A DNA stretch of 35,583 nucleotides from a virus (taxonomy: Duplodnaviria > Heunggongvirae > Uroviricota > Caudoviricetes): the IMG/VR virus record IMGVR_UViG_2711768048_000005, positions 1 through 35,583 of that record; one strand, given 5' to 3'. The first letter of the stretch is position 1, and the number at the start of each line of letters is the position of its first letter. The notes under the pieces were generated by a model that worked only from the letters and a program-made list of their open reading frames with translations, was not told where the DNA came from and did not search any database. Of this stretch, positions 20,950 through 35,583 are shown piece after piece. The translations under genes were made by a program, and so were the position numbers.

Positions 20950-22956
20950 TCAGTCAGCGGAGATGTGAAGAACTTTCAGCGCTTCCGGCTGGGTTACAAC
21001 GTAATCCAGATCTACCCAGATACGCGGAACGATAGCAGACTGTGCGCGGTAGGTAGTGTCATCAATGTCAAGTTCCAGACCACCCCATTCACCGATGGTA
21101 ATAGCGTCGAACGATCCCAGAACGATGTGGTCTACCGGAATAACACCTGAAGTAACTACGTCGTAACCAGCCAGTTTACCGTTTTCGATGATATAACCGG
21201 AAACACCGTTATCTTTCAGGGTAGATTCCAGTTCAGCAGCAGTTGCACCGCTCATTGCAAACTTGATCGCCTGAGCAGGAACGCCAGCGTCGGTCAGTTT
21301 AGCAATTTCTTTCAGGAAGTCTTTATAAGAGAAAGCAGCTTTCTTCTCTACGCGACCAGCATCTACCAGTTGTTTAATCACACCAGCCGGACCACGAGCA
21401 TTTTCTTTATCGGACAGAATCAGTTGTTCCAGTTTGATGCGAACAGCCTGGTTAATGTGATCAGTGATCAGGGTAGCGATCCCAGGAACGGTCTTGAGGC
21501 TAGCCCTAGAAATTGGGTTGCCACCAGCAAAAGTTTTCGGAGCCATTTTCACGTTCGCAAATTCGGCTTTACCTTCCGGTGCAGCACCGTTTTCATCAAC
21601 GAAGCCGAAAGATTCAACGCTAGAAGCGGTCATTTTCGGAATAGCGGTCGGCGAAGTCAGACCAGACAGGACTTTCACACCCAGACGACCCAGAACGGAT
21701 TCCGGCATCAGCATCGCTACATAGGAATCATTCAGCAGTTTTTCGTCAGTTACAGCGGTCAGAGTAGCTTTGGTGTTACCATCAGCAGCAGCACGCATAG
21801 CAGCAGTAGGAACGAATACGGAGCCACCGCGAGCAGCACGACCACGCTGCATAGTTGCAGTAGCAGCCATTGCAGAAAACTCGGCTTCGTTAGCACCCAG
21901 AGCTTCACCATCTACCAGAGAGCGAATTACGTTGTTCAGGTCAAAAGTTTTTTCCATTTTAGAGTCCTTAATTTGTTGTTCGTTATTACGTTGAGCATTG
22001 GTAATGTTATTTAGTGCCTTAGTGCGGAATGCTTCCGGCGTCATGTCTTTAATTGCCAATGCGCGTTCTAATTCTTCGTCGTTAATATTTAGTTCGCGTG
22101 CAATTTCGCGAATTTCTAATTCGTCTTCTTCGGAACGTTCAGCCACTTCCTCGTTTTTTTCTTCTTCAACCGGAGCGGCTTCACGTTCTTCTTTTACTTC
22201 TTCTGTTTCCCGAACAGTTGAACTATCATCATCAACACTTTCAGGATGTTCAGCGTCTTTTCCGTCTTCGAGATTTTCATCTTCTTTATTCTCTTCAACT
22301 TGGCGCTCTTGAGTTTCTTCAACTTCCGATTCTTTATTTTCTTCTACCGGAGTTTCTTCAACCTGAGCGGATTCTTGTTCTTCTTTGATTTCTTCAATTT
22401 GTTCTTTAGTCATATCGCGTTTAGCCTCCAAATTAACTGTGATAGTATTTAGAGAGCGATTTAAACCGACCGTATCGTCTGCGGGAACGGTGACAAATGA
22501 GAGTTCATAGGGTGCCCACTTAGTAACAATCAATTGCCCTTTGGCGTAATCGATGTGATATTCTTTAATGTCATAGCCGACAGAAATTTTTTCCATCGTA
22601 CCTTCAATGACTTTATTACGAACATCATTAGCCAAAGTGCCATGTTTAGAGAATTTAACCAGAGCACGGCCTACGTTATCCGCATCGATTCGAGCGTCGC
22701 AGACTACACCTAAATGATTATCGAAATTATGATTGAACAGCAACGGAGCGTTATTATTCAGACGAGACAGATCAACCGCTTCCGGTGTATGTACCAGAAT
22801 TTCATCTAATACCACCATTTCTTGATTTTGCTCATCCCAGAATTGGCGCTGATAAGGCTGTTCACTGGAGAAAGCAATTTCAAATTCGTATTGATCATTA
22901 TGCCCTTCGTTAATAACTCCACCGTAACCGTTAAGATCGCGGCGAAATTTAAGCAT
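20950..22956 (-). CDS. prohead protease - acidic scaffold-like linker - HK97-fold major capsid protein fusion
   Basis: 668 aa. The N-terminal ~180 aa carry HK97-type prohead protease features (LLFNHNFDNHLGV, ELSFVTVPAD). The middle is an acidic E/K-rich low-complexity region. The C-terminal ~300 aa look like a major capsid protein. Ends in TGA. Confidence 0.8.
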   Translation of the reverse strand: MLKFRRDLNGYGGVINEGHNDQYEFEIAFSSEQPYQRQFWDEQNQEMVVLDEILVHTPEAVDLSRLNNNAPLLFNHNFDNHLGVVCDARIDADNVGRALVKFSKHGTLANDVRNKVIEGTMEKISVGYDIKEYHIDYAKGQLIVTKWAPYELSFVTVPADDTVGLNRSLNTITVNLEAKRDMTKEQIEEIKEEQESAQVEETPVEENKESEVEETQERQVEENKEDENLEDGKDAEHPESVDDDSSTVRETEEVKEEREAAPVEEEKNEEVAERSEEDELEIREIARELNINDEELERALAIKDMTPEAFRTKALNNITNAQRNNEQQIKDSKMEKTFDLNNVIRSLVDGEALGANEAEFSAMAATATMQRGRAARGGSVFVPTAAMRAAADGNTKATLTAVTDEKLLNDSYVAMLMPESVLGRLGVKVLSGLTSPTAIPKMTASSVESFGFVDENGAAPEGKAEFANVKMAPKTFAGGNPISRASLKTVPGIATLITDHINQAVRIKLEQLILSDKENARGPAGVIKQLVDAGRVEKKAAFSYKDFLKEIAKLTDAGVPAQAIKFAMSGATAAELESTLKDNGVSGYIIENGKLAGYDVVTSGVIPVDHIVLGSFDAITIGEWGGLELDIDDTTYRAQSAIVPRIWVDLDYVVTQPEALKVLHISAD

Positions 22957-25090: not shown

Positions 25091-26995
25091 TTAGAACGAT
25101 GTTACCCAGCTACGGCCTCTATTTGGGCGTCTGGCGATGTTTTTACGTTGTGGTCGTGTGATTGGCTTAGTTTCTTCGATTTGCTCGTTAGATTGCGATT
25201 TAGGAGCTTCTACGGATTCTTCTGGTTCACGGTTCAAACTATCTTTGATGGCTTCGAGTTTTTCCCATGACATTTTATTGAGTACATGACGAGAAGCAGC
25301 ATAGGAATAAGCCAGGCAGTCCAACGCTTCGTTTCGTGTTTGTCCAACTTTTACCCAACGTGTGGTATTACCCTGCCGTTTCAACTGTTCAGAAAGCAAT
25401 TGCTCGCAATAGTCATCAGGAACGTCACCAATCTGGAAGACAGTGTGAGGATCGCCATCTCTCAAGTTCCGGTTAATCATTTCACGGATCATCGTTTTAA
25501 GGTTGTTTACGCCCAGAATTTTAAGGGTAAAACCACCCGTTCTTGTGTCTTTTACCGGAAGGATTGGTGCATCAACATTGCTTGCGCCTTTAATGGCGGT
25601 TAGATTTTGCCACCGACTACAGAATCGATAGATCACGTTTGTAGCTCGTCCGTTCGATGAGTCCACGAAAGCAGATAACATCGGGATTCGTTCACCGGAT
25701 CGGGTATAGAATTTAGCTTTCAGGAAGTTGTAAAGCTGGTTATATGCTGGTGATTCGTGGCGTTCGCAGTTCACATCATAGAATGATCGGTGATCAACTA
25801 CGCATAGCCCTTTACGAGAAATACCCAGCAAGGTAGATTCCAGACGGTCTTTTTGCTGGTCAACTCCACCTACCAGAGCCAGTACATCATCAGGAATATT
25901 GTCTAGGCTAATATCAGTTTTCAGCGTTTCCAGTTCGTCGGCTGTGCGATCTTCGTTAAGATCATCGAAGGTTTCACCGAGCACCACATTATAGAACGTT
26001 GCCAGCGACATATTCGCGTAGCTATCAGCAAAGTCCACCACACACGCACGGATAGAACTAAACGGAGACATAAGGCGGTTAGCATGAAAACCGATTACTT
26101 CCGCATTTGGTTCGGTGGCGACCCATTCCCCCTGAGCAACAGCACGGAGGCGATCTGGTTCTGACCAATCAGTTTCACATGACGGGCAACGGTAAACGGC
26201 TGTGTCTGGATTCGGCAGTGATTTACCATTGATTACATGCCAATCAAAGAATACTCTACTCCATTCCATTACGTGTTTGTGTCCGCAATGCTGGCAAACG
26301 ACGTGGTATTTTCTTTTATCCGAGAGTTCCCATTGTTGGTTTATCGCCCCATCCCGCGAAGTTGGAGTAGAAGCAATTACGATCCTTGCATCATCACCGA
26401 AAGTGGTTGCGCGTTGTTCCGCTAGCTGGATCGGGTTCCCTTCGTCTGACTCATCAGCCGCATCAACTTCATCCAGAATAATCAAAGGCAGTGTCTTACC
26501 GCGCAAGTGTGATGGACTGTTCAGCGACATGAAATACATGAATGATCCGTTACGAAGCTGAATAATCGATGAGTTGTTAACGGCATTGCGATCTGATTTG
26601 TCGGTGATCATCGCCTTTAATTCTGGGGTTGCCTCTAATACTGGCTTCACCTTACCCGCAATCCATGAGTTCAATTCTCGAACGTTCGCTTGCAAAACAC
26701 CGATATTAGTAGGGTTACTGGCGATCCTGTGAAAGATAATACCGTTTAGCACAAGAGTTTTACCCAACTGCGCCGAGCACTTTAGCACAATTTTTCGCCT
26801 ATCTTCGGTGATCGCGTCCATCATTCCACGTTGGAAGGGATGCAACTTAATTAGAGATCCGGCTTTAACACCATCGGTTGCAACTACATTAGCCTCTACC
26901 CATTCGCTAGGTTTCATCGTTTTAGGTGGGCGAATTGCCGCAGAGATATTTTTAAGAATCTTTTTTAATTTGGCCTTATTAGAAATCAGTTTCAT
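25091..26995 (-). CDS. terminase large subunit (GpA-like)
   Basis: 634 aa. N-terminal ATPase with Walker-A-like LKCSAQLGKT; Cys cluster CQHCGHKH...YRCPSCETD as in GpA-type terminases; C-terminal nuclease-sized region. RBS GAGGGT upstream. Confidence 0.85.
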   Translation of the reverse strand: MKLISNKAKLKKILKNISAAIRPPKTMKPSEWVEANVVATDGVKAGSLIKLHPFQRGMMDAITEDRRKIVLKCSAQLGKTLVLNGIIFHRIASNPTNIGVLQANVRELNSWIAGKVKPVLEATPELKAMITDKSDRNAVNNSSIIQLRNGSFMYFMSLNSPSHLRGKTLPLIILDEVDAADESDEGNPIQLAEQRATTFGDDARIVIASTPTSRDGAINQQWELSDKRKYHVVCQHCGHKHVMEWSRVFFDWHVINGKSLPNPDTAVYRCPSCETDWSEPDRLRAVAQGEWVATEPNAEVIGFHANRLMSPFSSIRACVVDFADSYANMSLATFYNVVLGETFDDLNEDRTADELETLKTDISLDNIPDDVLALVGGVDQQKDRLESTLLGISRKGLCVVDHRSFYDVNCERHESPAYNQLYNFLKAKFYTRSGERIPMLSAFVDSSNGRATNVIYRFCSRWQNLTAIKGASNVDAPILPVKDTRTGGFTLKILGVNNLKTMIREMINRNLRDGDPHTVFQIGDVPDDYCEQLLSEQLKRQGNTTRWVKVGQTRNEALDCLAYSYAASRHVLNKMSWEKLEAIKDSLNREPEESVEAPKSQSNEQIEETKPITRPQRKNIARRPNRGRSWVTSF

Positions 26996-27038
26996 GTAAT
27001 TACCCTCATTACGAAATATGAAGGTATTTATTAAATTG

Positions 27039-27066
27039 TTGATATTTTGATAAATACGGATATTAA
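27039..27066 (+). promoter_or_regulatory. candidate sigma70 promoter (TTGATA-16-TATTAA) for the repeat-containing gene
   Basis: Hexamer match only; it would place the transcript start very close to the SD, so weak. Confidence 0.25.
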
Positions 27067-27082
27067 GATTTAAGGGGGGTGT

Positions 27083-27196
27083 ATGCTAATTAATCAGCAA
27101 GAAAGAGATGAATTAGAATTAGCCTTGTCTTGTCTTGTCTTGTCTTGTCTTGTCTTGTCTTGTCTTGTACCGATCATGAATATCGTTTGCCAGTAA
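27083..27196 (+). CDS. leader ORF: ATG with strong SD reading through (CTTGT)9 and stopping out of frame (current OFF state)
   Basis: SD AAGGGGGG then ATG 27083. The frame passes through the repeat and ends at TAA 27194-27196 (37 aa). It is in a different frame from the 196-codon ORF. Confidence 0.35.
   Translation: MLINQQERDELELALSCLVLSCLVLSCLVPIMNIVCQ
27124..27168. repeat. perfect pentanucleotide tandem repeat (CTTGT)9
   Basis: 45 nt of nine uninterrupted CTTGT units read directly from the sequence. Confidence 0.95.
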
Positions 27197-27720
27197 AACA
27201 TAAGCACTTAAAGACTGATTACACAACATCTGGCTTTAGTCGTGAGGAAGCGAAAGAGATTTTAATAGAGTTTTACCGCGATAATGGTTATACAGACGTT
27301 CACAACTTCTTTAAGAAGCATAGAACATCACATACAGAGTTTCGGAGAGTCCGAGAATGGTTTGATTTTGATATCAAGCGTTATTATCGAGTGGATGACG
27401 GTCCAATCTATCGGTTGCAGTGGAAGCCGATCAGGGAAGTGCTTAAACAGAAGAGATTGAATCATGCCATTACACGCTATCGTAACGTGGCTTTCAAGAA
27501 AGGCTATGGTGATACAAGGGAATTGTTTGTAGAACTCGCTAACGTGCGATATAGCCACTATTACAGGAATCCTAAAGAGTTCTTCGAAGTGCTGCGCAAG
27601 GTTGATATTAGTCGGGGTACATATTATTCACGGTTGAAGAAGTACGGGATTAAGGCAGAGTTCTTTATGTCGGTTGACGATGGAGAACTTTTTCCGATAA
27701 AATGTAAGTCCTCTAAATAA
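27130..27720 (+). CDS. 196-codon open frame with no in-frame ATG (candidate phase-variable gene; basic, Tyr/Arg-rich product)
   Basis: Track ORF begins at a TTG inside the repeat. Its C-terminus shares a motif with the two small paralogues (27756-27980, 31052-31231). Confidence 0.45.
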   Translation: MSCLVLSCLVLSCTDHEYRLPVKHKHLKTDYTTSGFSREEAKEILIEFYRDNGYTDVHNFFKKHRTSHTEFRRVREWFDFDIKRYYRVDDGPIYRLQWKPIREVLKQKRLNHAITRYRNVAFKKGYGDTRELFVELANVRYSHYYRNPKEFFEVLRKVDISRGTYYSRLKKYGIKAEFFMSVDDGELFPIKCKSSK

Positions 27721-27722
27721 AG

Positions 27723-27980
27723 GTGAACATTCACTTTAATTTGGAGAAAATGACTATGACTACTAAAGCTACTCGCGGTCGCCCTGTCCGTTTTAATCGT
27801 GAACAACTGGCAGCGATTGTAAAAGCGTACTATCAAGCGCCGAAAGGTAAAGCCGAAAAAGAACAAGTATTGAGTGAACACGGTATTTCAATTGCTCAAT
27901 TCTACAAATCACTCCATAAAGTTGATTTGAAATTCTTTGTTCAGGTTGACGGTGAAATGGTAGAAGCAACAGGAATTTGA
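27723..27980 (+). CDS. small putative DNA-binding protein, paralogue A (likely start ATG 27756, 74 aa)
   Basis: RGRPVRFNREQLAAIVKAYY...GISIAQFYKSLHKVDLKFFVQVDGE aligns with the product of 31052-31231. Terminator follows. Confidence 0.5.
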   Translation: MNIHFNLEKMTMTTKATRGRPVRFNREQLAAIVKAYYQAPKGKAEKEQVLSEHGISIAQFYKSLHKVDLKFFVQVDGEMVEATGI

Positions 27981-27986
27981 TTCTCT

Positions 27987-28017
27987 AGGCCAATCCTTCG
28001 GGGTTGGCCTTTTTTTA
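27987..28017 (+). terminator. rho-independent terminator
   Basis: aggccaatcc-ttcg-gggttggcct followed by ttttttt. Confidence 0.65.
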
Positions 28018-28084
28018 TGCACATGCGCTTAAAGTTCAGCGCATCTATATTCTTCCGACAAATCCAAATCTGGATGCACCAAAT

Positions 28085-28109
28085 ACAAAAAGCCCCTGAA
28101 ATTCAGGGG
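28085..28109 (-). terminator. rho-independent terminator for the Rha-like gene
   Basis: gcccctgaa-a-ttcaggggc hairpin with a T-tract on the minus strand. Confidence 0.6.
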
Positions 28110-28117
28110 CAAAATTA

Positions 28118-28960
28118 TTACAGTCCGAAGACTTCCAGTGATCCAGCATTCTGACGAATCAGCAAAGCGGTATTATTGACGATTGCTCGCGAGTTATTCG
28201 GTTGTGGCAATTTCAAAGTTGCGGCTTTTTCTTCTTCAAGCAATCCGAGTTTTACAAGATGCGGGATAGCATCAGCAGTGAACTCAATCTGACCGTGTGC
28301 CGACATACGAGCGAACATATAGCCAGGAGGAAGCAGATCATAGCCTTTAGGCTTACCAGAAGCATCCAGACGACGCTCAAGAACACCAGCAGCACATAAA
28401 CCTTTCAGAATCATTTGTACCTTCGTAGAGCCTCGTTTTTCGCCTAATAAGCGGCTAAGACTGTGTGTGTCGATAGCTTTACGAACATGCAATTCAACCA
28501 GTTGTTTCTTTTCTTGAATCAGTTGTTCGTTTGCGGCTTCCAATTCCATTGCCTCACGAATCCAGTCGAGCTTAGTCATGTTTGCGTAAGGGTTGATTTG
28601 CTGAGAACGCAGTTTTTCATTTTCTTCTTTCAGTCGCTTCCATTCCTGAATAACAACCATTCGACGCTTAACATCGTAACCAGTGACAAGAGTCAGCGTC
28701 ATTTCTTCGTCTAAGTGATATACTGGTTCTTTAACAGCATATCCTAAGTTATTGATTCTCTCGACAAATTCAGTTTTGAGCTGATCGATAATACCTAAAG
28801 ATTCGTACATTTCGCGAATATCGCGCATTATATTGCTGTGCTTCTTATCGGTAAATTCAGCGATCTGACGAGAAGACATGGTCAGCGGTTTGGTGTTATC
28901 AACAACCAGAGACACAGAAGCAGTTTTAACAGCAGTATTCATAGTAGTAACAGTATTCAT
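28118..28960 (-). CDS. phage regulatory protein Rha-family (antirepressor-like)
   Basis: N-terminal segment LTMSSRQIAEFTDKKHSNIMRDIREM matches the conserved Rha-family N-terminal motif as I recall it. Confidence 0.65.
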   Translation of the reverse strand: MNTVTTMNTAVKTASVSLVVDNTKPLTMSSRQIAEFTDKKHSNIMRDIREMYESLGIIDQLKTEFVERINNLGYAVKEPVYHLDEEMTLTLVTGYDVKRRMVVIQEWKRLKEENEKLRSQQINPYANMTKLDWIREAMELEAANEQLIQEKKQLVELHVRKAIDTHSLSRLLGEKRGSTKVQMILKGLCAAGVLERRLDASGKPKGYDLLPPGYMFARMSAHGQIEFTADAIPHLVKLGLLEEEKAATLKLPQPNNSRAIVNNTALLIRQNAGSLEVFGL

Positions 28961-29786: not shown

Positions 29787-30361
29787 AGTGGAAATCCTCT
29801 AAAAGAAAGTGAATCAATCTAATATTATTTATAAAGAGAAAATTCTTGTTATTATGAAAAGAGTGATTGTATTCAGTCGGGCAAAGCCCTCCTTCATGAT
29901 TTGATTAAATCATCATCAAAACGAAGAAGTATCTTTAGAATATAAGAATCTTTCTTTTGGAGAAATAATAATAATCAGGAAGCAATTTAGCAACCGAAGG
30001 TTGCAATCCCGAAGGGATACCAATACCTTTCTAGAAAGTGATTGTTACTCACTTCGTTCGTTTACTAGAATCAGTTAGTAACTAGTATTAAATCCCTTTC
30101 TAAGAAAATCCTTTCAAAAGCGAGTGAACGCCGTAGGCGTGAACGTGAGCGAAGCGAACTATCCAATCCCTTTCGAATCCTGCTTGCAGGTCTTAGAAGG
30201 TGTTGATGGGCGCTTCGCGCACGGCTACGCCGTATTCTTTTTGCGAGATCTTTCTTGAACGTAGTGAGAGAAAACGAGCAAAAAGGAGAACGTTAGTTCG
30301 AATTTTATATTCTATGGTCTGTGGGGTGAAATGTCTTTCAAGATCATACAATTATGAGATT

Positions 30362-30486
30362 GAAGTGTAGGGTTAGTGTAGGTGTGTAGGTTTCATAGTG
30401 TAGGTTTGAGGGTGTTATAGTGTAGGTTTACTGGCTAGTGTAGTGTAGGCCAATCCCTTTAAAGCGTAGGTTTGTAGTGTAGGTTT
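30362..30486. repeat. iteron-like array: about 8-9 copies of (TA)GTGTAGG(TTT) at irregular 8-23 nt spacing
   Basis: GTGTAGG (one copy GCGTAGG) read at about 30365, 30376, 30384, 30398, 30420, 30442, 30465 and 30475, with a partial GTGTAG at 30437. Lies inside a 1.25-kb stretch with no ORF of 60 aa or more in any frame. Confidence 0.7.
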
Positions 30487-30680
30487 TTCATCAAAAATTT
30501 TGATAGAAAATCCTTGTGTATTATTTAACCGGAAAATCACCAAAAATCGCTGTAAATGCATGATTTAAAAAGAATTATCAAAAGGTCGCCGTGCTATAAT
30601 AGGTTATAAAGGTTGATAATCGTTATCCGCCATTTTCACATAAAAATTTTGATAGTCATTTCTCGCTTAGGTCAAGTGTA

Positions 30681-30709
30681 TTGACAACTGTCAAGGATTA
30701 TTTTATACT
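30681..30709 (+). promoter_or_regulatory. near-consensus sigma70 promoter (TTGACA-17-TATACT) overlapping a palindrome TTGACA-AC-TGTCAA
   Basis: Hexamers and spacing read directly. The same TAGGTCAAGT 10-mer (30668-30677) occurs at 29221-29230. Confidence 0.6.
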
Positions 30710-30844
30710 TTTTCTCTTTGATAGGGGTTGAAATTTTCGAAACAATCCCCATATTGATGATAAGCAAGATTTTTTCGTGTATAAATACATGCATGAAATG
30801 ATTGTTCACTTCTGAAAATCCCCTGATTCACTGTTAACACATAC

Positions 30845-30872
30845 GGCACTGGTTAAACATACAGTGCCTTTT
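30845..30872 (+). terminator. intrinsic terminator/attenuator in the leader downstream of the 30681 promoter
   Basis: ggcactg-gttaaacata-cagtgcc followed by tttt. Confidence 0.45.
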
Positions 30873-31036
30873 CGATTGAATAATGTACGAATTGATTAAT
30901 TATTAATCTTCTCTTTAGCAATTCGTGCTCCCACTGATCAGATATACAGTGGTTTTACAGGGTTTTCTGAAATGACTTTTATAAATAGAAGTATCGAGGG
31001 CGAAAAGCTCTTTTTATTGTCCTTATTAATCCACAT

Positions 31037-31231
31037 TTGAGGAATCTACTTATGGCTAGACCTGTTAAGTTTACTCGTGAAATGATTGTTGATATTGCTA
31101 AACGCTTTTATGGCGATACTGAACGAGGCGGCGAGAATTTCTTTAAGAAGGAAGGAATTGATAGAAGCGGATTCTATAAGCTAATGAAGAAATACGAAAT
31201 TCAGATAAAGATTAACGTTCAAGTTTGTTAA
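31037..31231 (+). CDS. small putative DNA-binding protein, paralogue B (likely start ATG 31052, 59 aa)
   Basis: MARPVKFTREMIVDIAKRFYG...GIDRSGFYKLMKKYEIQIKINVQV aligns with the product of 27756-27980. RBS GAGGA 8 nt upstream. Confidence 0.5.
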   Translation: MRNLLMARPVKFTREMIVDIAKRFYGDTERGGENFFKKEGIDRSGFYKLMKKYEIQIKINVQVC

Positions 31232-33307: not shown

Positions 33308-33862
33308 TTAAGACACATCAAATTCATCGTCTTCTTCTGGTTCTTGTTCCGGTTCATCCATTAATGGTAATTCTTCTTCCTCGTCTTCTCCCAAATCAGC
33401 ATTTTCGAACAAGTCCCCTACTTCATTTAAACGACGCTCGATGATCTCCCTTAGCTTATTCTTCAATGTTTTCTGATCGGTAGCAGATTCGAGAATTTCT
33501 AAAGCATCGATCGTACAAATCTGCAAGATAGTCTGCTTCACCTTCCCACAATATTCAGCTAGCTCCTGTTCTACATAACCGACCGGAATCAGGAGGTTCA
33601 TCGCTTCCTGGTTCTCTCGTTCGGCTGCATCTGCTAAAGCACGTTCACGGCGTAATTTCTCTACATCGATTTGTTCTTTGATAGAAGTTTGTTTAAGCGG
33701 GTTGATAATATTTTTCAAGACCCATTCTGTTCCTTCTTTGGCTGGCACGCGGCGGGTATTGGTGTTAAATGGCAATCCCCTTTCTATCCATCGCTTAGCG
33801 CCACCATTCAATGAATAGCCGTATAAACGGGAAATTTCTGTAAGGGTTAATTCTTCTTTCAT
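33308..33862 (-). CDS. terminase small subunit candidate (Nu1-like HTH protein)
   Basis: 184 aa. N-terminal HTH-like segment (LTLTEISRLYGYSLNGGAKRWIERGLPF), central EKLRRE motif and acidic C-terminus, matching lambda Nu1 architecture as I recall it. Unusually, it is 6.3 kb from the terminase large subunit. Confidence 0.5.
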   Translation of the reverse strand: MKEELTLTEISRLYGYSLNGGAKRWIERGLPFNTNTRRVPAKEGTEWVLKNIINPLKQTSIKEQIDVEKLRRERALADAAERENQEAMNLLIPVGYVEQELAEYCGKVKQTILQICTIDALEILESATDQKTLKNKLREIIERRLNEVGDLFENADLGEDEEEELPLMDEPEQEPEEDDEFDVS

Positions 33863-35232: not shown

Positions 35233-35583
35233 TTATTTTGGGTTGACTACATTCGGGTTGCCAATTCGCCTGGCTAACTCTTGCTGAGTGATTTCTGACT
35301 GTAAAAAAGCATTTAACAGCAATACCTTAGAGGCGACGCTCAAAGGTACTTCAATAAAGTGATCGTGACTATTTAATGGCGAAGGTAAAGGGATAAGCTC
35401 GTTATCTTCAAAATAAAAATCAAATGCGGTCAGTAAAGCATCTTTTGCCGCTTCCATCGCTTCAGCGACAGTTTCGCCCTGGGTCAACGCTTCAGGGATA
35501 TCCACAAAAGAAACCATATAACCGCCTTCCGGCGCGGGTGTAAGAGTGACGGGATAACGCATAATTTCGACTGTCTCTCGCAT
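35233..35583 (-). CDS. hicB: HicB antitoxin, 3'-truncated at the prophage junction (host gene; real start MRYPV at about 35562)
   Basis: Translation MRYPVTLTPAPEGGYMVSFVDIPEALTQGETVAEAMEAAKDALLTAFDFYFEDNELIPLPSPLNSHDHFIEVPLSVASKVLLLNAFLQSEITQQELARRIG matches E. coli HicB as I recall it, then diverges into NPNVVNPK-stop at about codon 101. Confidence 0.75.
   Translation of the reverse strand: MRETVEIMRYPVTLTPAPEGGYMVSFVDIPEALTQGETVAEAMEAAKDALLTAFDFYFEDNELIPLPSPLNSHDHFIEVPLSVASKVLLLNAFLQSEITQQELARRIGNPNVVNPK

Follow-up and report, generated by a model that had tools for sequence, protein, structure and literature searches.

A frame-setting pentanucleotide repeat in a conserved gene beside the terminase of an Escherichia coli prophage: a probable contingency locus

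The repeat tract and the gene that contains it

The stretch of DNA analysed here, called the window in what follows, is a viral record of 35,583 nucleotides (Caudoviricetes; IMG/VR record IMGVR_UViG_2711768048_000005) in which a gene lying next to the large terminase gene terL, and divergent to it, carries a perfect (CTTGT)9 tract shortly after its start codon. The window corresponds to contig CXXM01000021.1 of assembly GCA_001268845.1, with 100% identity over 6.6 kb, and the protein annotated on that contig carries an E. coli label. We describe here how this tract sets the reading frame of the gene, how its length varies between near-identical prophages, and what this may mean for the expression of a conserved phage protein. 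The tract occupies positions 27124-27168, where an earlier note, made from the letters alone, had placed it, and both the repeat finder TRF (100% matches, score 90) and a direct read-out of the sequence agree on its extent. The next-longest simple sequence repeats (SSRs) of the 35.6-kb window reach only 4 units of di- or trinucleotides, leaving (CTTGT)9 as the sole sizeable one, and by our estimate a perfect 45-nt tract of period 5 would be expected by chance about 1e-19 times in a sequence of this length.

The tract starts in codon 14 of the open reading frame (ORF) that begins at ATG 27083 and fills the codons that follow it. With nine units the ATG frame closes at TAA 27194-27196 after 37 codons, and the coordinates that the earlier note had given for this start, with its Shine-Dalgarno sequence, and for this stop are correct. 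The long frame that continues downstream (27130-27720, plus strand) has 196 codons when counted from a TTG within the tract, and its sole Met codon lies near the C-terminus. Explicit simulation of alleles with 0-14 units gives the full-length product at 2, 5, 8, 11 and 14 units and a truncated product of about 18-42 aa at every other unit count; it agrees with the earlier claim that 8 or 11 units restore the frame, and places the window allele, with its 9 units, out of frame (OFF).

To search for relatives, the ATG frame was fused to the long frame in its 8-unit version (210 aa) and compared with 5.8 billion proteins. This returned 41 homologues, mostly of about 200 aa and from E. coli, Salmonella and Proteus, which cover 100% of the fused query and share its N-terminus from ATG 27083, reading MLINQQ.RDELELALSCTDHEY across the tract site. 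Because the homologues cover the whole construct and share this N-terminus, a conserved protein of about 200 aa truly starts at ATG 27083. In the alignment (MLINQQ.RDELELALS-CTDHEYRLPVKH) the tract site reads ...ELALS-CTDHEY, with only Leu-Ser-Cys in place of the tract. The ORF of 196 codons lacking an ATG of its own was located correctly by the earlier note, whereas its reading of the tract as a spacer ahead of an orphan ORF does not hold, since the homologues show one continuous ORF.

At the DNA level, most family members spell codons 15-17 (Leu-Ser-Cys) as CTTGTCTTGT. In E. coli PE15 (L004) the site reads GCC TTG TCT TGT TGT ACC, which is (CTTGT)2, and E. coli BS74R-D (L003) has the degenerate form CTGGTCTTGC. 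By these sequences, the tract is the expansion of a two-unit proto-repeat inside a continuous ORF, by 7 units (35 nt), with a consequent shift of frame. The locus is present in 54 of 5,426 complete E. coli genomes, and two of the 54 (PI7 and 24AR0357) carry an expanded tract. The gene is a core member of the prophage family, not a cargo gene, since Salmonella, Proteus and other E. coli relatives share the gene order around it; synteny with terL is retained down to 43% amino acid identity. The ratio of non-synonymous to synonymous substitution rates (dN/dS) is 0.07-0.13, or about 0.1, in every pairwise comparison, including that between the two sequence backbones described below, from which it follows that the gene evolved as protein-coding, with most of the divergence probably older than the tract.

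Table 1. Features of the locus and of its surroundings in the window
Feature	Position	Strand	Remarks
Serine-recombinase-type large integrase (phrog_95)	1488-3182	+	
Endolysin (phrog_894)	3717-4070	-	
668-aa ORF	20950-22956	-	head-maturation protease (Peptidase_S78 in relatives) and major capsid protein (Phage_capsid) in one frame
terL, large terminase, gpA type (GpA_ATPase, GpA_nuclease)	25091-26995	-	divergent neighbour; adjacency kept in every relative examined
Divergent spacer between terL and the gene	26996-27082		AT-rich, 87 bp
Imperfect palindrome GTATTTATTAAA...TTTGATAAATAC	27024-27057		34 bp, within the divergent spacer; candidate operator
Shine-Dalgarno-like AAGGGGGG	27072-27079	+	upstream of ATG 27083; holds a G6 run
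ATG-frame ORF of the 9-unit allele	27083-27196	+	true gene start; 37-aa OFF product MLINQQERDELELA-(LSCLV)n-PIMNIVCQ, then TAA
(CTTGT)9 tract	27124-27168	+	expansion of ancestral (CTTGT)2 encoding L15-S16-C17
Gene body	27169-27720	+	183 codons and stop, in the +1-shifted frame, which is intact; two predicted domains of three helices and a beta-hairpin
In-frame TTG	27187-27189	+	start given by the NCBI pipeline to the 177-aa product of out-of-frame alleles; no obvious Shine-Dalgarno; 5 nt ahead of the TAA that ends the short ATG-frame ORF
74-aa paralogue of the C-terminal domain	27756-27980	+	probably co-transcribed with the gene
Terminator-like hairpin, then T-run	27987-28010	+	closes the two-gene unit
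Non-coding gap	29800-31036		
Seven direct GTGTAGG(TTT) copies	30365-30483	one strand	irregular spacing of 8-34 nt, then an AT-rich stretch
Second small paralogue	31037-31231	+	64-aa ORF from TTG, or 59 aa from ATG 31052
Nu1-like small terminase (terS) candidate	33308-33862	-	
HicB-like antitoxin	35233-35583	-	at the window edge

Unit number on near-identical DNA and the alleles on record

Tract length differs between prophages that are otherwise almost the same, on two distinct backbones. On backbone A, that of the window, inspection of the DNA gives 9 units in the window itself, 7 units in six loci (L006, L008, L009, L011, L013 and L015) and 6 units in five others (L007, L010, L012, L014 and L018), even though these loci differ from the window by only 0-2 single-nucleotide polymorphisms (SNPs) outside the gene over 1-8.8 kb. 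The JGI metagenome contig L006, for instance, has 7 units and a single SNP relative to the window over 8.8 kb. Exact matching of the ORFs that a gene caller would predict for out-of-frame alleles gave many further contigs, from NCBI, ENA and Logan. Length does not follow haplotype: loci with T at position 26129 have either 6 or 7 units, and those with C have 9 (the window) or 7 (L008). On backbone B, the complete genomes of E. coli PI7 (L001) and 24AR0357 have 7 and 6 units, respectively, and are otherwise 100% identical over the 3.8 kb compared, and an IMG/VR contig (L145) has 7. From these comparisons, the tract seems to change length at least as often as the several kilobases around it gain one substitution. 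Differences in repeat number between near-identical sequences, one of the marks of a contingency locus, are therefore found on both backbones, and the comparison across related prophages that the earlier note had proposed yields alleles of 6, 7 and 9 units at the DNA level.

The 5' segment that holds the tract is identical between the two backbones, from the intergenic region to about 27260, and beyond that point the gene bodies differ by 8-12%, that of the window being nearest to the two-unit allele of PE15. The simplest reading of these sequences would be that the expansion arose once and was then carried by recombination to different gene bodies.

The G-run of the Shine-Dalgarno motif (27074-27079 in the window) also differs in length within the family. 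The window type has G6, the backbone-B genomes PI7 and 24AR0357 have G7, and the unexpanded PE15 and BS74R-D have G5 and then a T. Being invariant within backbone A, this run is not obviously hypervariable.

An assembly or sequencing artefact, in which mis-assembly or polymerase stutter would create the unit counts, has to be weighed at this point, because the Logan assemblies used for part of the survey are built from short k-mers (k=31). One Logan contig (L019, from ERR13369776) starts with exactly 30 nt of CTTGT repeat, that is k-1, which implies that its sample holds a tract of at least 8 units or mixed lengths, and which indicates that tracts of 36 nt or more break such assemblies. By de Bruijn graph logic, however, tracts of 30-35 nt are shorter than k+5 and should assemble unambiguously. 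The 6- and 7-unit alleles recur in two finished RefSeq chromosomes, in NCBI drafts, in ENA and JGI metagenome contigs and in IMG/VR, and the 8- and 9-unit alleles come from NCBI assemblies. Taken together, this makes an artefact a most improbable explanation of the variation.

Exact-sequence look-ups among about 15 billion proteins extend the series beyond the DNA-level unit counts, which cover 6, 7 and 9 units only (Table 2). The contig counts obtained in this way may include clonal relatives and are not independent. The observed series runs through 5, 6, 7, 8 and 9 units with its mode at 6-7, and length alleles of both kinds, in frame (ON) and OFF, are on record with the rest of the ORF intact on both backbones. 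The earlier note had named, as an outcome that would speak against a switch, related phages whose long ORF is always out of frame; this is not what the records hold, since exact 5-unit (205 aa) and 8-unit (210 aa) products exist on both backbones.

Table 2. Length alleles by exact protein look-up
Units	Product	State	Backbone A	Backbone B
2	200 aa	ON	not found	not found
3/4	186 aa	OFF	not found	not found
5	205 aa	ON	P0042, 10 contigs, several NCBI accessions	P0074, 1 contig
6/7	191 aa	OFF	11 contigs	63 contigs
8	210 aa	ON	P0059, HFI6703716.1, 1 contig	P0077, EFK1569391.1 / WP_440226395.1, 2 contigs
9/10	196 aa	OFF	1 contig (window)	not found
11	215 aa	ON	not found	not found
14	220 aa	ON	not found	not looked up (backbone A only)
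Any OFF allele, pipeline TTG start	177 aa	OFF	6 contigs	31 contigs

Altogether, these comparisons point to a hypermutable pentanucleotide microsatellite in a conserved phage gene that toggles the reading frame by slipped-strand mispairing, with the window allele in the OFF state, and we give this reading a probability of about 80%. The central claim of the earlier note, that slippage of the tract turns a real gene on and off, finds support in the comparative genomics, namely in a conserved gene, in DNA alleles of 6, 7 and 9 units and in the 5- and 8-unit products. Several points weigh against this reading. The in-frame 5- and 8-unit alleles are known as exact protein records only. By exact look-up most sampled alleles are OFF, with at least 75 OFF contigs against about 14 ON, and this excess fits a neutral stepwise drift around a mode of 6-7 units equally well as it fits a maintained switch. 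These counts are biased, since by de Bruijn graph logic the Logan assemblies cannot cross tracts of 8 or more units and long alleles are under-counted, an under-sampling with which both the break in L019 and the derivation of all 8- and 9-unit records from NCBI assemblies are consistent. The tract is, moreover, young and confined to a small lineage of the family, and is thus no anciently maintained device. Finally, one 7-unit OFF allele (L015, GCA_003291455.1) has an additional 11-nt deletion at 27525-27535 that splits the gene into ORFs of 114 and 81 aa; no other locus read shows signs of decay, and the deletion may represent decay after inactivation.

The same points give substance to the main competitor, a dead gene with a drifting microsatellite, where a dispensable gene would have been inactivated by a one-off expansion and would have undergone neutral length changes ever since, with in-frame alleles arising by chance in about one third of lengths. 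The mutational mechanism would be the same in both cases, and only the functional switch would be missing. Apart from the OFF excess and the modal lengths of 6 and 7, both of which are OFF, this explanation draws on the second disabling lesion of L015, on the rarity of the expansion (the two of 54 genomes mentioned above) and on the window prophage itself, which looks otherwise intact while its gene is OFF, suggesting that the gene is not needed for prophage persistence. Compared with a unitary pseudogene, the locus gives a mixed picture: the window allele has a frameshift and one of 16 loci an extra lesion, but its backbone also carries in-frame alleles, and the dN/dS of 0.1 reflects older divergence. 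On the other hand, of the 16 distinct tract-bearing loci with a readable gene, 15 keep the downstream frame of 183 codons whole, as do, by definition of the look-up, the exact-match contigs; full-length ON alleles exist on both backbones; and the 5' segment with the tract has moved onto two gene bodies that lie 8-12% apart with a dN/dS of about 0.1. The gene is also a conserved and syntenic member of its family, albeit the divergence behind that statement probably predates the tract and so does not prove selection after the expansion. In our view a dead gene is a real possibility, though not a probable one.

A leaky switch would be a further variant. Here, OFF alleles would still yield a protein of 177 aa by termination and re-initiation at TTG 27187, a possible re-initiation site, and the tract would toggle the N-terminal helix only. 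The NCBI pipeline annotates exactly this 177-aa ORF, and in the 6- and 9-unit alleles the short ORF stops 5 nt past the TTG. Contrary to this geometry, 7-unit alleles stop earlier, at TGA 27177-27179, and the TTG is in itself a weak start with no Shine-Dalgarno before it, which leaves this variant unlikely.

These alleles are easily overlooked. At 90% identity, the 5-unit allele shares a cluster with thousands of fragments of IS3-family transposases, and the cluster representative (P0043, 276 aa, from ENA) is presumably a chimeric ORF produced by an insertion sequence (IS) next to the gene; such clustering hides the repeat alleles from homology searches. A scan for (CTTGT)5 in 100,044 species representatives found at least 120 unrelated loci, mostly in metagenome-assembled genomes (Endomicrobium, Brachyspira, Desulfomonile), none of them enterobacterial among the matches listed.

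The predicted product and its genomic neighbourhood

The AlphaFold model of the product (mean predicted local distance difference test score, pLDDT, of 73) has an N-terminal helix at residues 5-16, a low-confidence linker at residues 16-29 (pLDDT below 50) and two similar units of three helices and a beta-hairpin each, at residues 42-99 and 134-193. The residues encoded by the tract fall in the linker, so that the insertion site is, according to the model, structurally tolerant. The family profile weakly matches proteins with HTH_23/HTH_28 repeats (E about 2e-4). As the earlier note had it, the product is basic, with an isoelectric point of 9.5, the N-terminus (MLINQQERDELE) being acidic; the C-terminal motif that it was said to share with two small paralogues is recovered as well, in matches of the C-terminal domain to the ORFs at 27756-27980 and 31037-31231 (tblastn/blastp, E 1e-4 to 5e-6). 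We take the product, with moderate to low confidence, for a lineage-restricted basic protein that probably binds DNA through tandem helix-turn-helix (HTH) domains.

Searches beyond the family returned little. Pfam gave only a sub-threshold match to Phage_HCP; PHROGs, PADLOC and NCBIfam hold no family for the product; a sequence profile had 0 matches in the PDB at E up to 10; and Foldseek found nothing in BFVD at E up to 0.001. A profile search of the full library (1.84 billion proteins) returned 14 representatives, nearly all of them fragments of the same family, and no distant annotated relatives. Among 50,697 phage records, neither the protein (tblastn) nor the DNA of 26500-28200 found a match, and the best match of the window TerL is just 44% identical, which together suggest a prophage family with no sequenced isolate.

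Since the gene adjoins terL, a small terminase was considered as its identity and rejected: the Nu1-like ORF of the window matches phrog_57 (E 1.2e-11), and the gene itself has no TerS match in PHROGs or Pfam and is divergent to terL, not co-oriented with it. This Nu1-like terS candidate lies some 6.3 kb from the gpA-type terL on the same strand, separated from it by genes of alternating orientation (Rha, three HTH-like paralogues and a 333-aa acidic protein) and by a non-coding gap of 1.2 kb. Salmonella and Proteus relatives show the same separation, so that the two terminase genes are not neighbours in this phage family.

In the overall order, capsid, portal, a 164-aa ORF and terL share one strand and are followed by the 200-aa and 74-aa genes on the opposite strand, and then by Rha, the non-coding gap, the small paralogue with an ORF of about 320 aa, and terS. 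Salmonella, Proteus and other E. coli relatives have this order too, at protein identities of 43-66%. The GTGTAGG cluster within the non-coding gap resembles iterons and is a candidate replication origin or regulator-binding array, as far as its sequence goes. An Rfam scan of the window gave no match, and no classical cI/cro or replication genes were recognised in it. The integrase, the endolysin and the HicB-like antitoxin (Table 1) suggest a compact prophage of some 32 kb, with its ends near 1.4 kb and 34 kb, in which head-maturation protease and major capsid protein share one frame.

Two further observations concern the immediate surroundings of the gene. In E. coli BS74R-D, the divergent intergenic region has an extra 8-nt copy, TTGATATT, next to the palindrome (the equivalent of about 27040-27050 in the window), so that a second polymorphism by small tandem duplication lies close to the promoter region. 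In PI7, the terL gene beside the 7-unit allele is annotated as frameshifted, with an internal stop, whereas 24AR0357 has an intact copy; over the 1.5 kb of terL compared the two do not differ, and the frameshift would be either a real decay of the prophage or a sequencing error outside the stretch read.

The earlier note had also suggested that changes in tract length could affect terL, about 130 nt away. The distance is right, the tract beginning 129 nt from the terL start codon at 26995, but an effect on terL finds no support, as the tract lies inside the coding region of the neighbouring gene and most relatives hold two units. A role of the tract in cis would take the form of spacing or bending upstream of the terL promoter, or of a binding array for terminase or a regulator, tuning the late operon instead of the gene or besides it. 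Its geometry is conceivable, given that the terL promoter has to fall somewhere between the Rha terminator (28092-28110) and 26996. However, the two units of most relatives are simply Leu-Ser-Cys codons, which leaves no conserved array, and the site is degenerate in BS74R-D (CTGGTCTTGC); the small terminase candidate, with the likely recognition region, is 6 kb away; and there is no promoter-like site beside the tract. We regard such a role as very unlikely. A cos site or terminase-binding array was rejected on the same ground, that relatives carry just two units. A strict scan for the sigma-70 consensus in the divergent intergenic region found no site.

Proposed switch and comparison with known systems

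Going back to the frame switch as the preferred reading, we propose that the two-unit proto-repeat at the Leu-Ser-Cys codons was expanded in one lineage, and that slipped-strand mispairing during replication, which we infer to be the mutational mechanism, adds or removes 5-nt units in what would be a reversible manner. Mismatch repair in E. coli corrects loops of up to about 4 nt, and loops of 5 nt largely escape it. Alleles of 2, 5, 8 and 11 units would then give the full protein with 0, 1, 2 and 3 extra LSCLV blocks, respectively, in the predicted linker behind the N-terminal helix, and OFF alleles would lose the product. From the nine units of the window, the frame would return with the loss of one unit (to 8) or the gain of two (to 11). 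The product would most likely act as a basic DNA binder with two HTH-like domains, in a module beside the late operon for terminase, head and tail; its binding to DNA is presumed from the predicted fold. A more specific role, as a regulator or DNA-binding factor needed for the late (packaging, head and tail) operon or for the decision between induction and silence, would render the prophage itself phase-variable. We consider this speculative and hold it to be rather improbable. If it were true, lysogen populations would consist of a majority of grounded prophages and a minority regaining competence by slippage, and the microsatellite would give a temperate phage a bet-hedging device of its own, in a species where SSR switches are considered rare.

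Whether switching is adaptive or merely tolerated, both are compatible with the allele survey. In either case, the locus would offer a natural series of alleles with 5, 6, 7, 8 and 9 units of a frame-shifting repeat, in a conserved temperate-coliphage gene and on near-identical DNA, and with it an easily manipulated system to study 5-nt slippage in a mismatch-repair-proficient enterobacterium and reversible frameshifting by a prophage. It would also serve as a ready typing marker for strains that carry this prophage. A lesson for annotation is that pipelines render the locus as hypothetical proteins of 177, 191 or 196 aa with false starts, while clustering masks the alleles.

SSR contingency loci are textbook knowledge in Neisseria, Haemophilus, Campylobacter and Helicobacter, and the tract described here shares with them, as the simulation shows, a position within the ORF where unit number sets the frame. 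In E. coli, the variable-number tandem repeat (VNTR) loci used for multiple-locus VNTR analysis (MLVA) are tandem repeats, several of them in prophages or ORFs, whose copy number varies between close relatives. These in-ORF repeats mostly have a unit length divisible by three and cause no frameshift, whereas the 5-nt unit shifts the frame here.

The closest layout is that of the Neisseria opa genes, to which the earlier note had likened the locus. Their (CTCTT)n tract, in the coding region of the leader peptide, is likewise a pentanucleotide repeat a few codons past the start, translated into a hydrophobic repeat (LSCLV in our case) and ON at one third of lengths. The likeness holds for the layout, with an in-ORF pentanucleotide that sets the frame, and does not extend to homology, as the product has no Pfam match to Opa or any other outer-membrane protein and its predicted fold is helical and HTH-like. 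Whereas Opa is a secreted outer-membrane adhesin, the phage product is predicted to be cytoplasmic and basic, with an acidic N-terminus, and belongs to an E. coli prophage gene with a recent expansion in a single lineage.

The hsdM gene of Haemophilus influenzae, with its (GACGA)n tract (Zaleski et al. 2005, summarised in PMC2651432), offers a second parallel. Going by that summary, it too has a short in-ORF tract (2-4 units, compared with 5-9 here) that decides the integrity of the ORF, varies between strains and is tied to phage-host conflict, and pentanucleotide tracts of just 4 units switch at high rates. Contrary to our case, hsdM is a restriction-modification gene of the host whose rate of switching has been measured, and the phage gene, known from allele surveys, has no homology to it.

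For E. coli itself, a 2025 review of phase variation gives examples that are invertible or epigenetic, not based on SSRs (PMC11868660). In phages, contingency loci have so far been shown experimentally only in the virulent T2 and T4, where homopolymer runs of at least 6 nt undergo reversible frameshifts and make populations heterogeneous, in a preprint stating that no phage contingency loci had been reported before (bioRxiv 10.1101/2025.10.21.683753). The switch proposed here is inferred from allele surveys only, and has in common with those loci an SSR within a gene and E. coli as the host, differing from them in being a pentanucleotide repeat in a temperate prophage. Judged by its sequence and its alleles, the locus would thus belong to a class already known, that of SSR contingency loci, though its setting, a pentanucleotide repeat in a temperate coliphage, is unusual.

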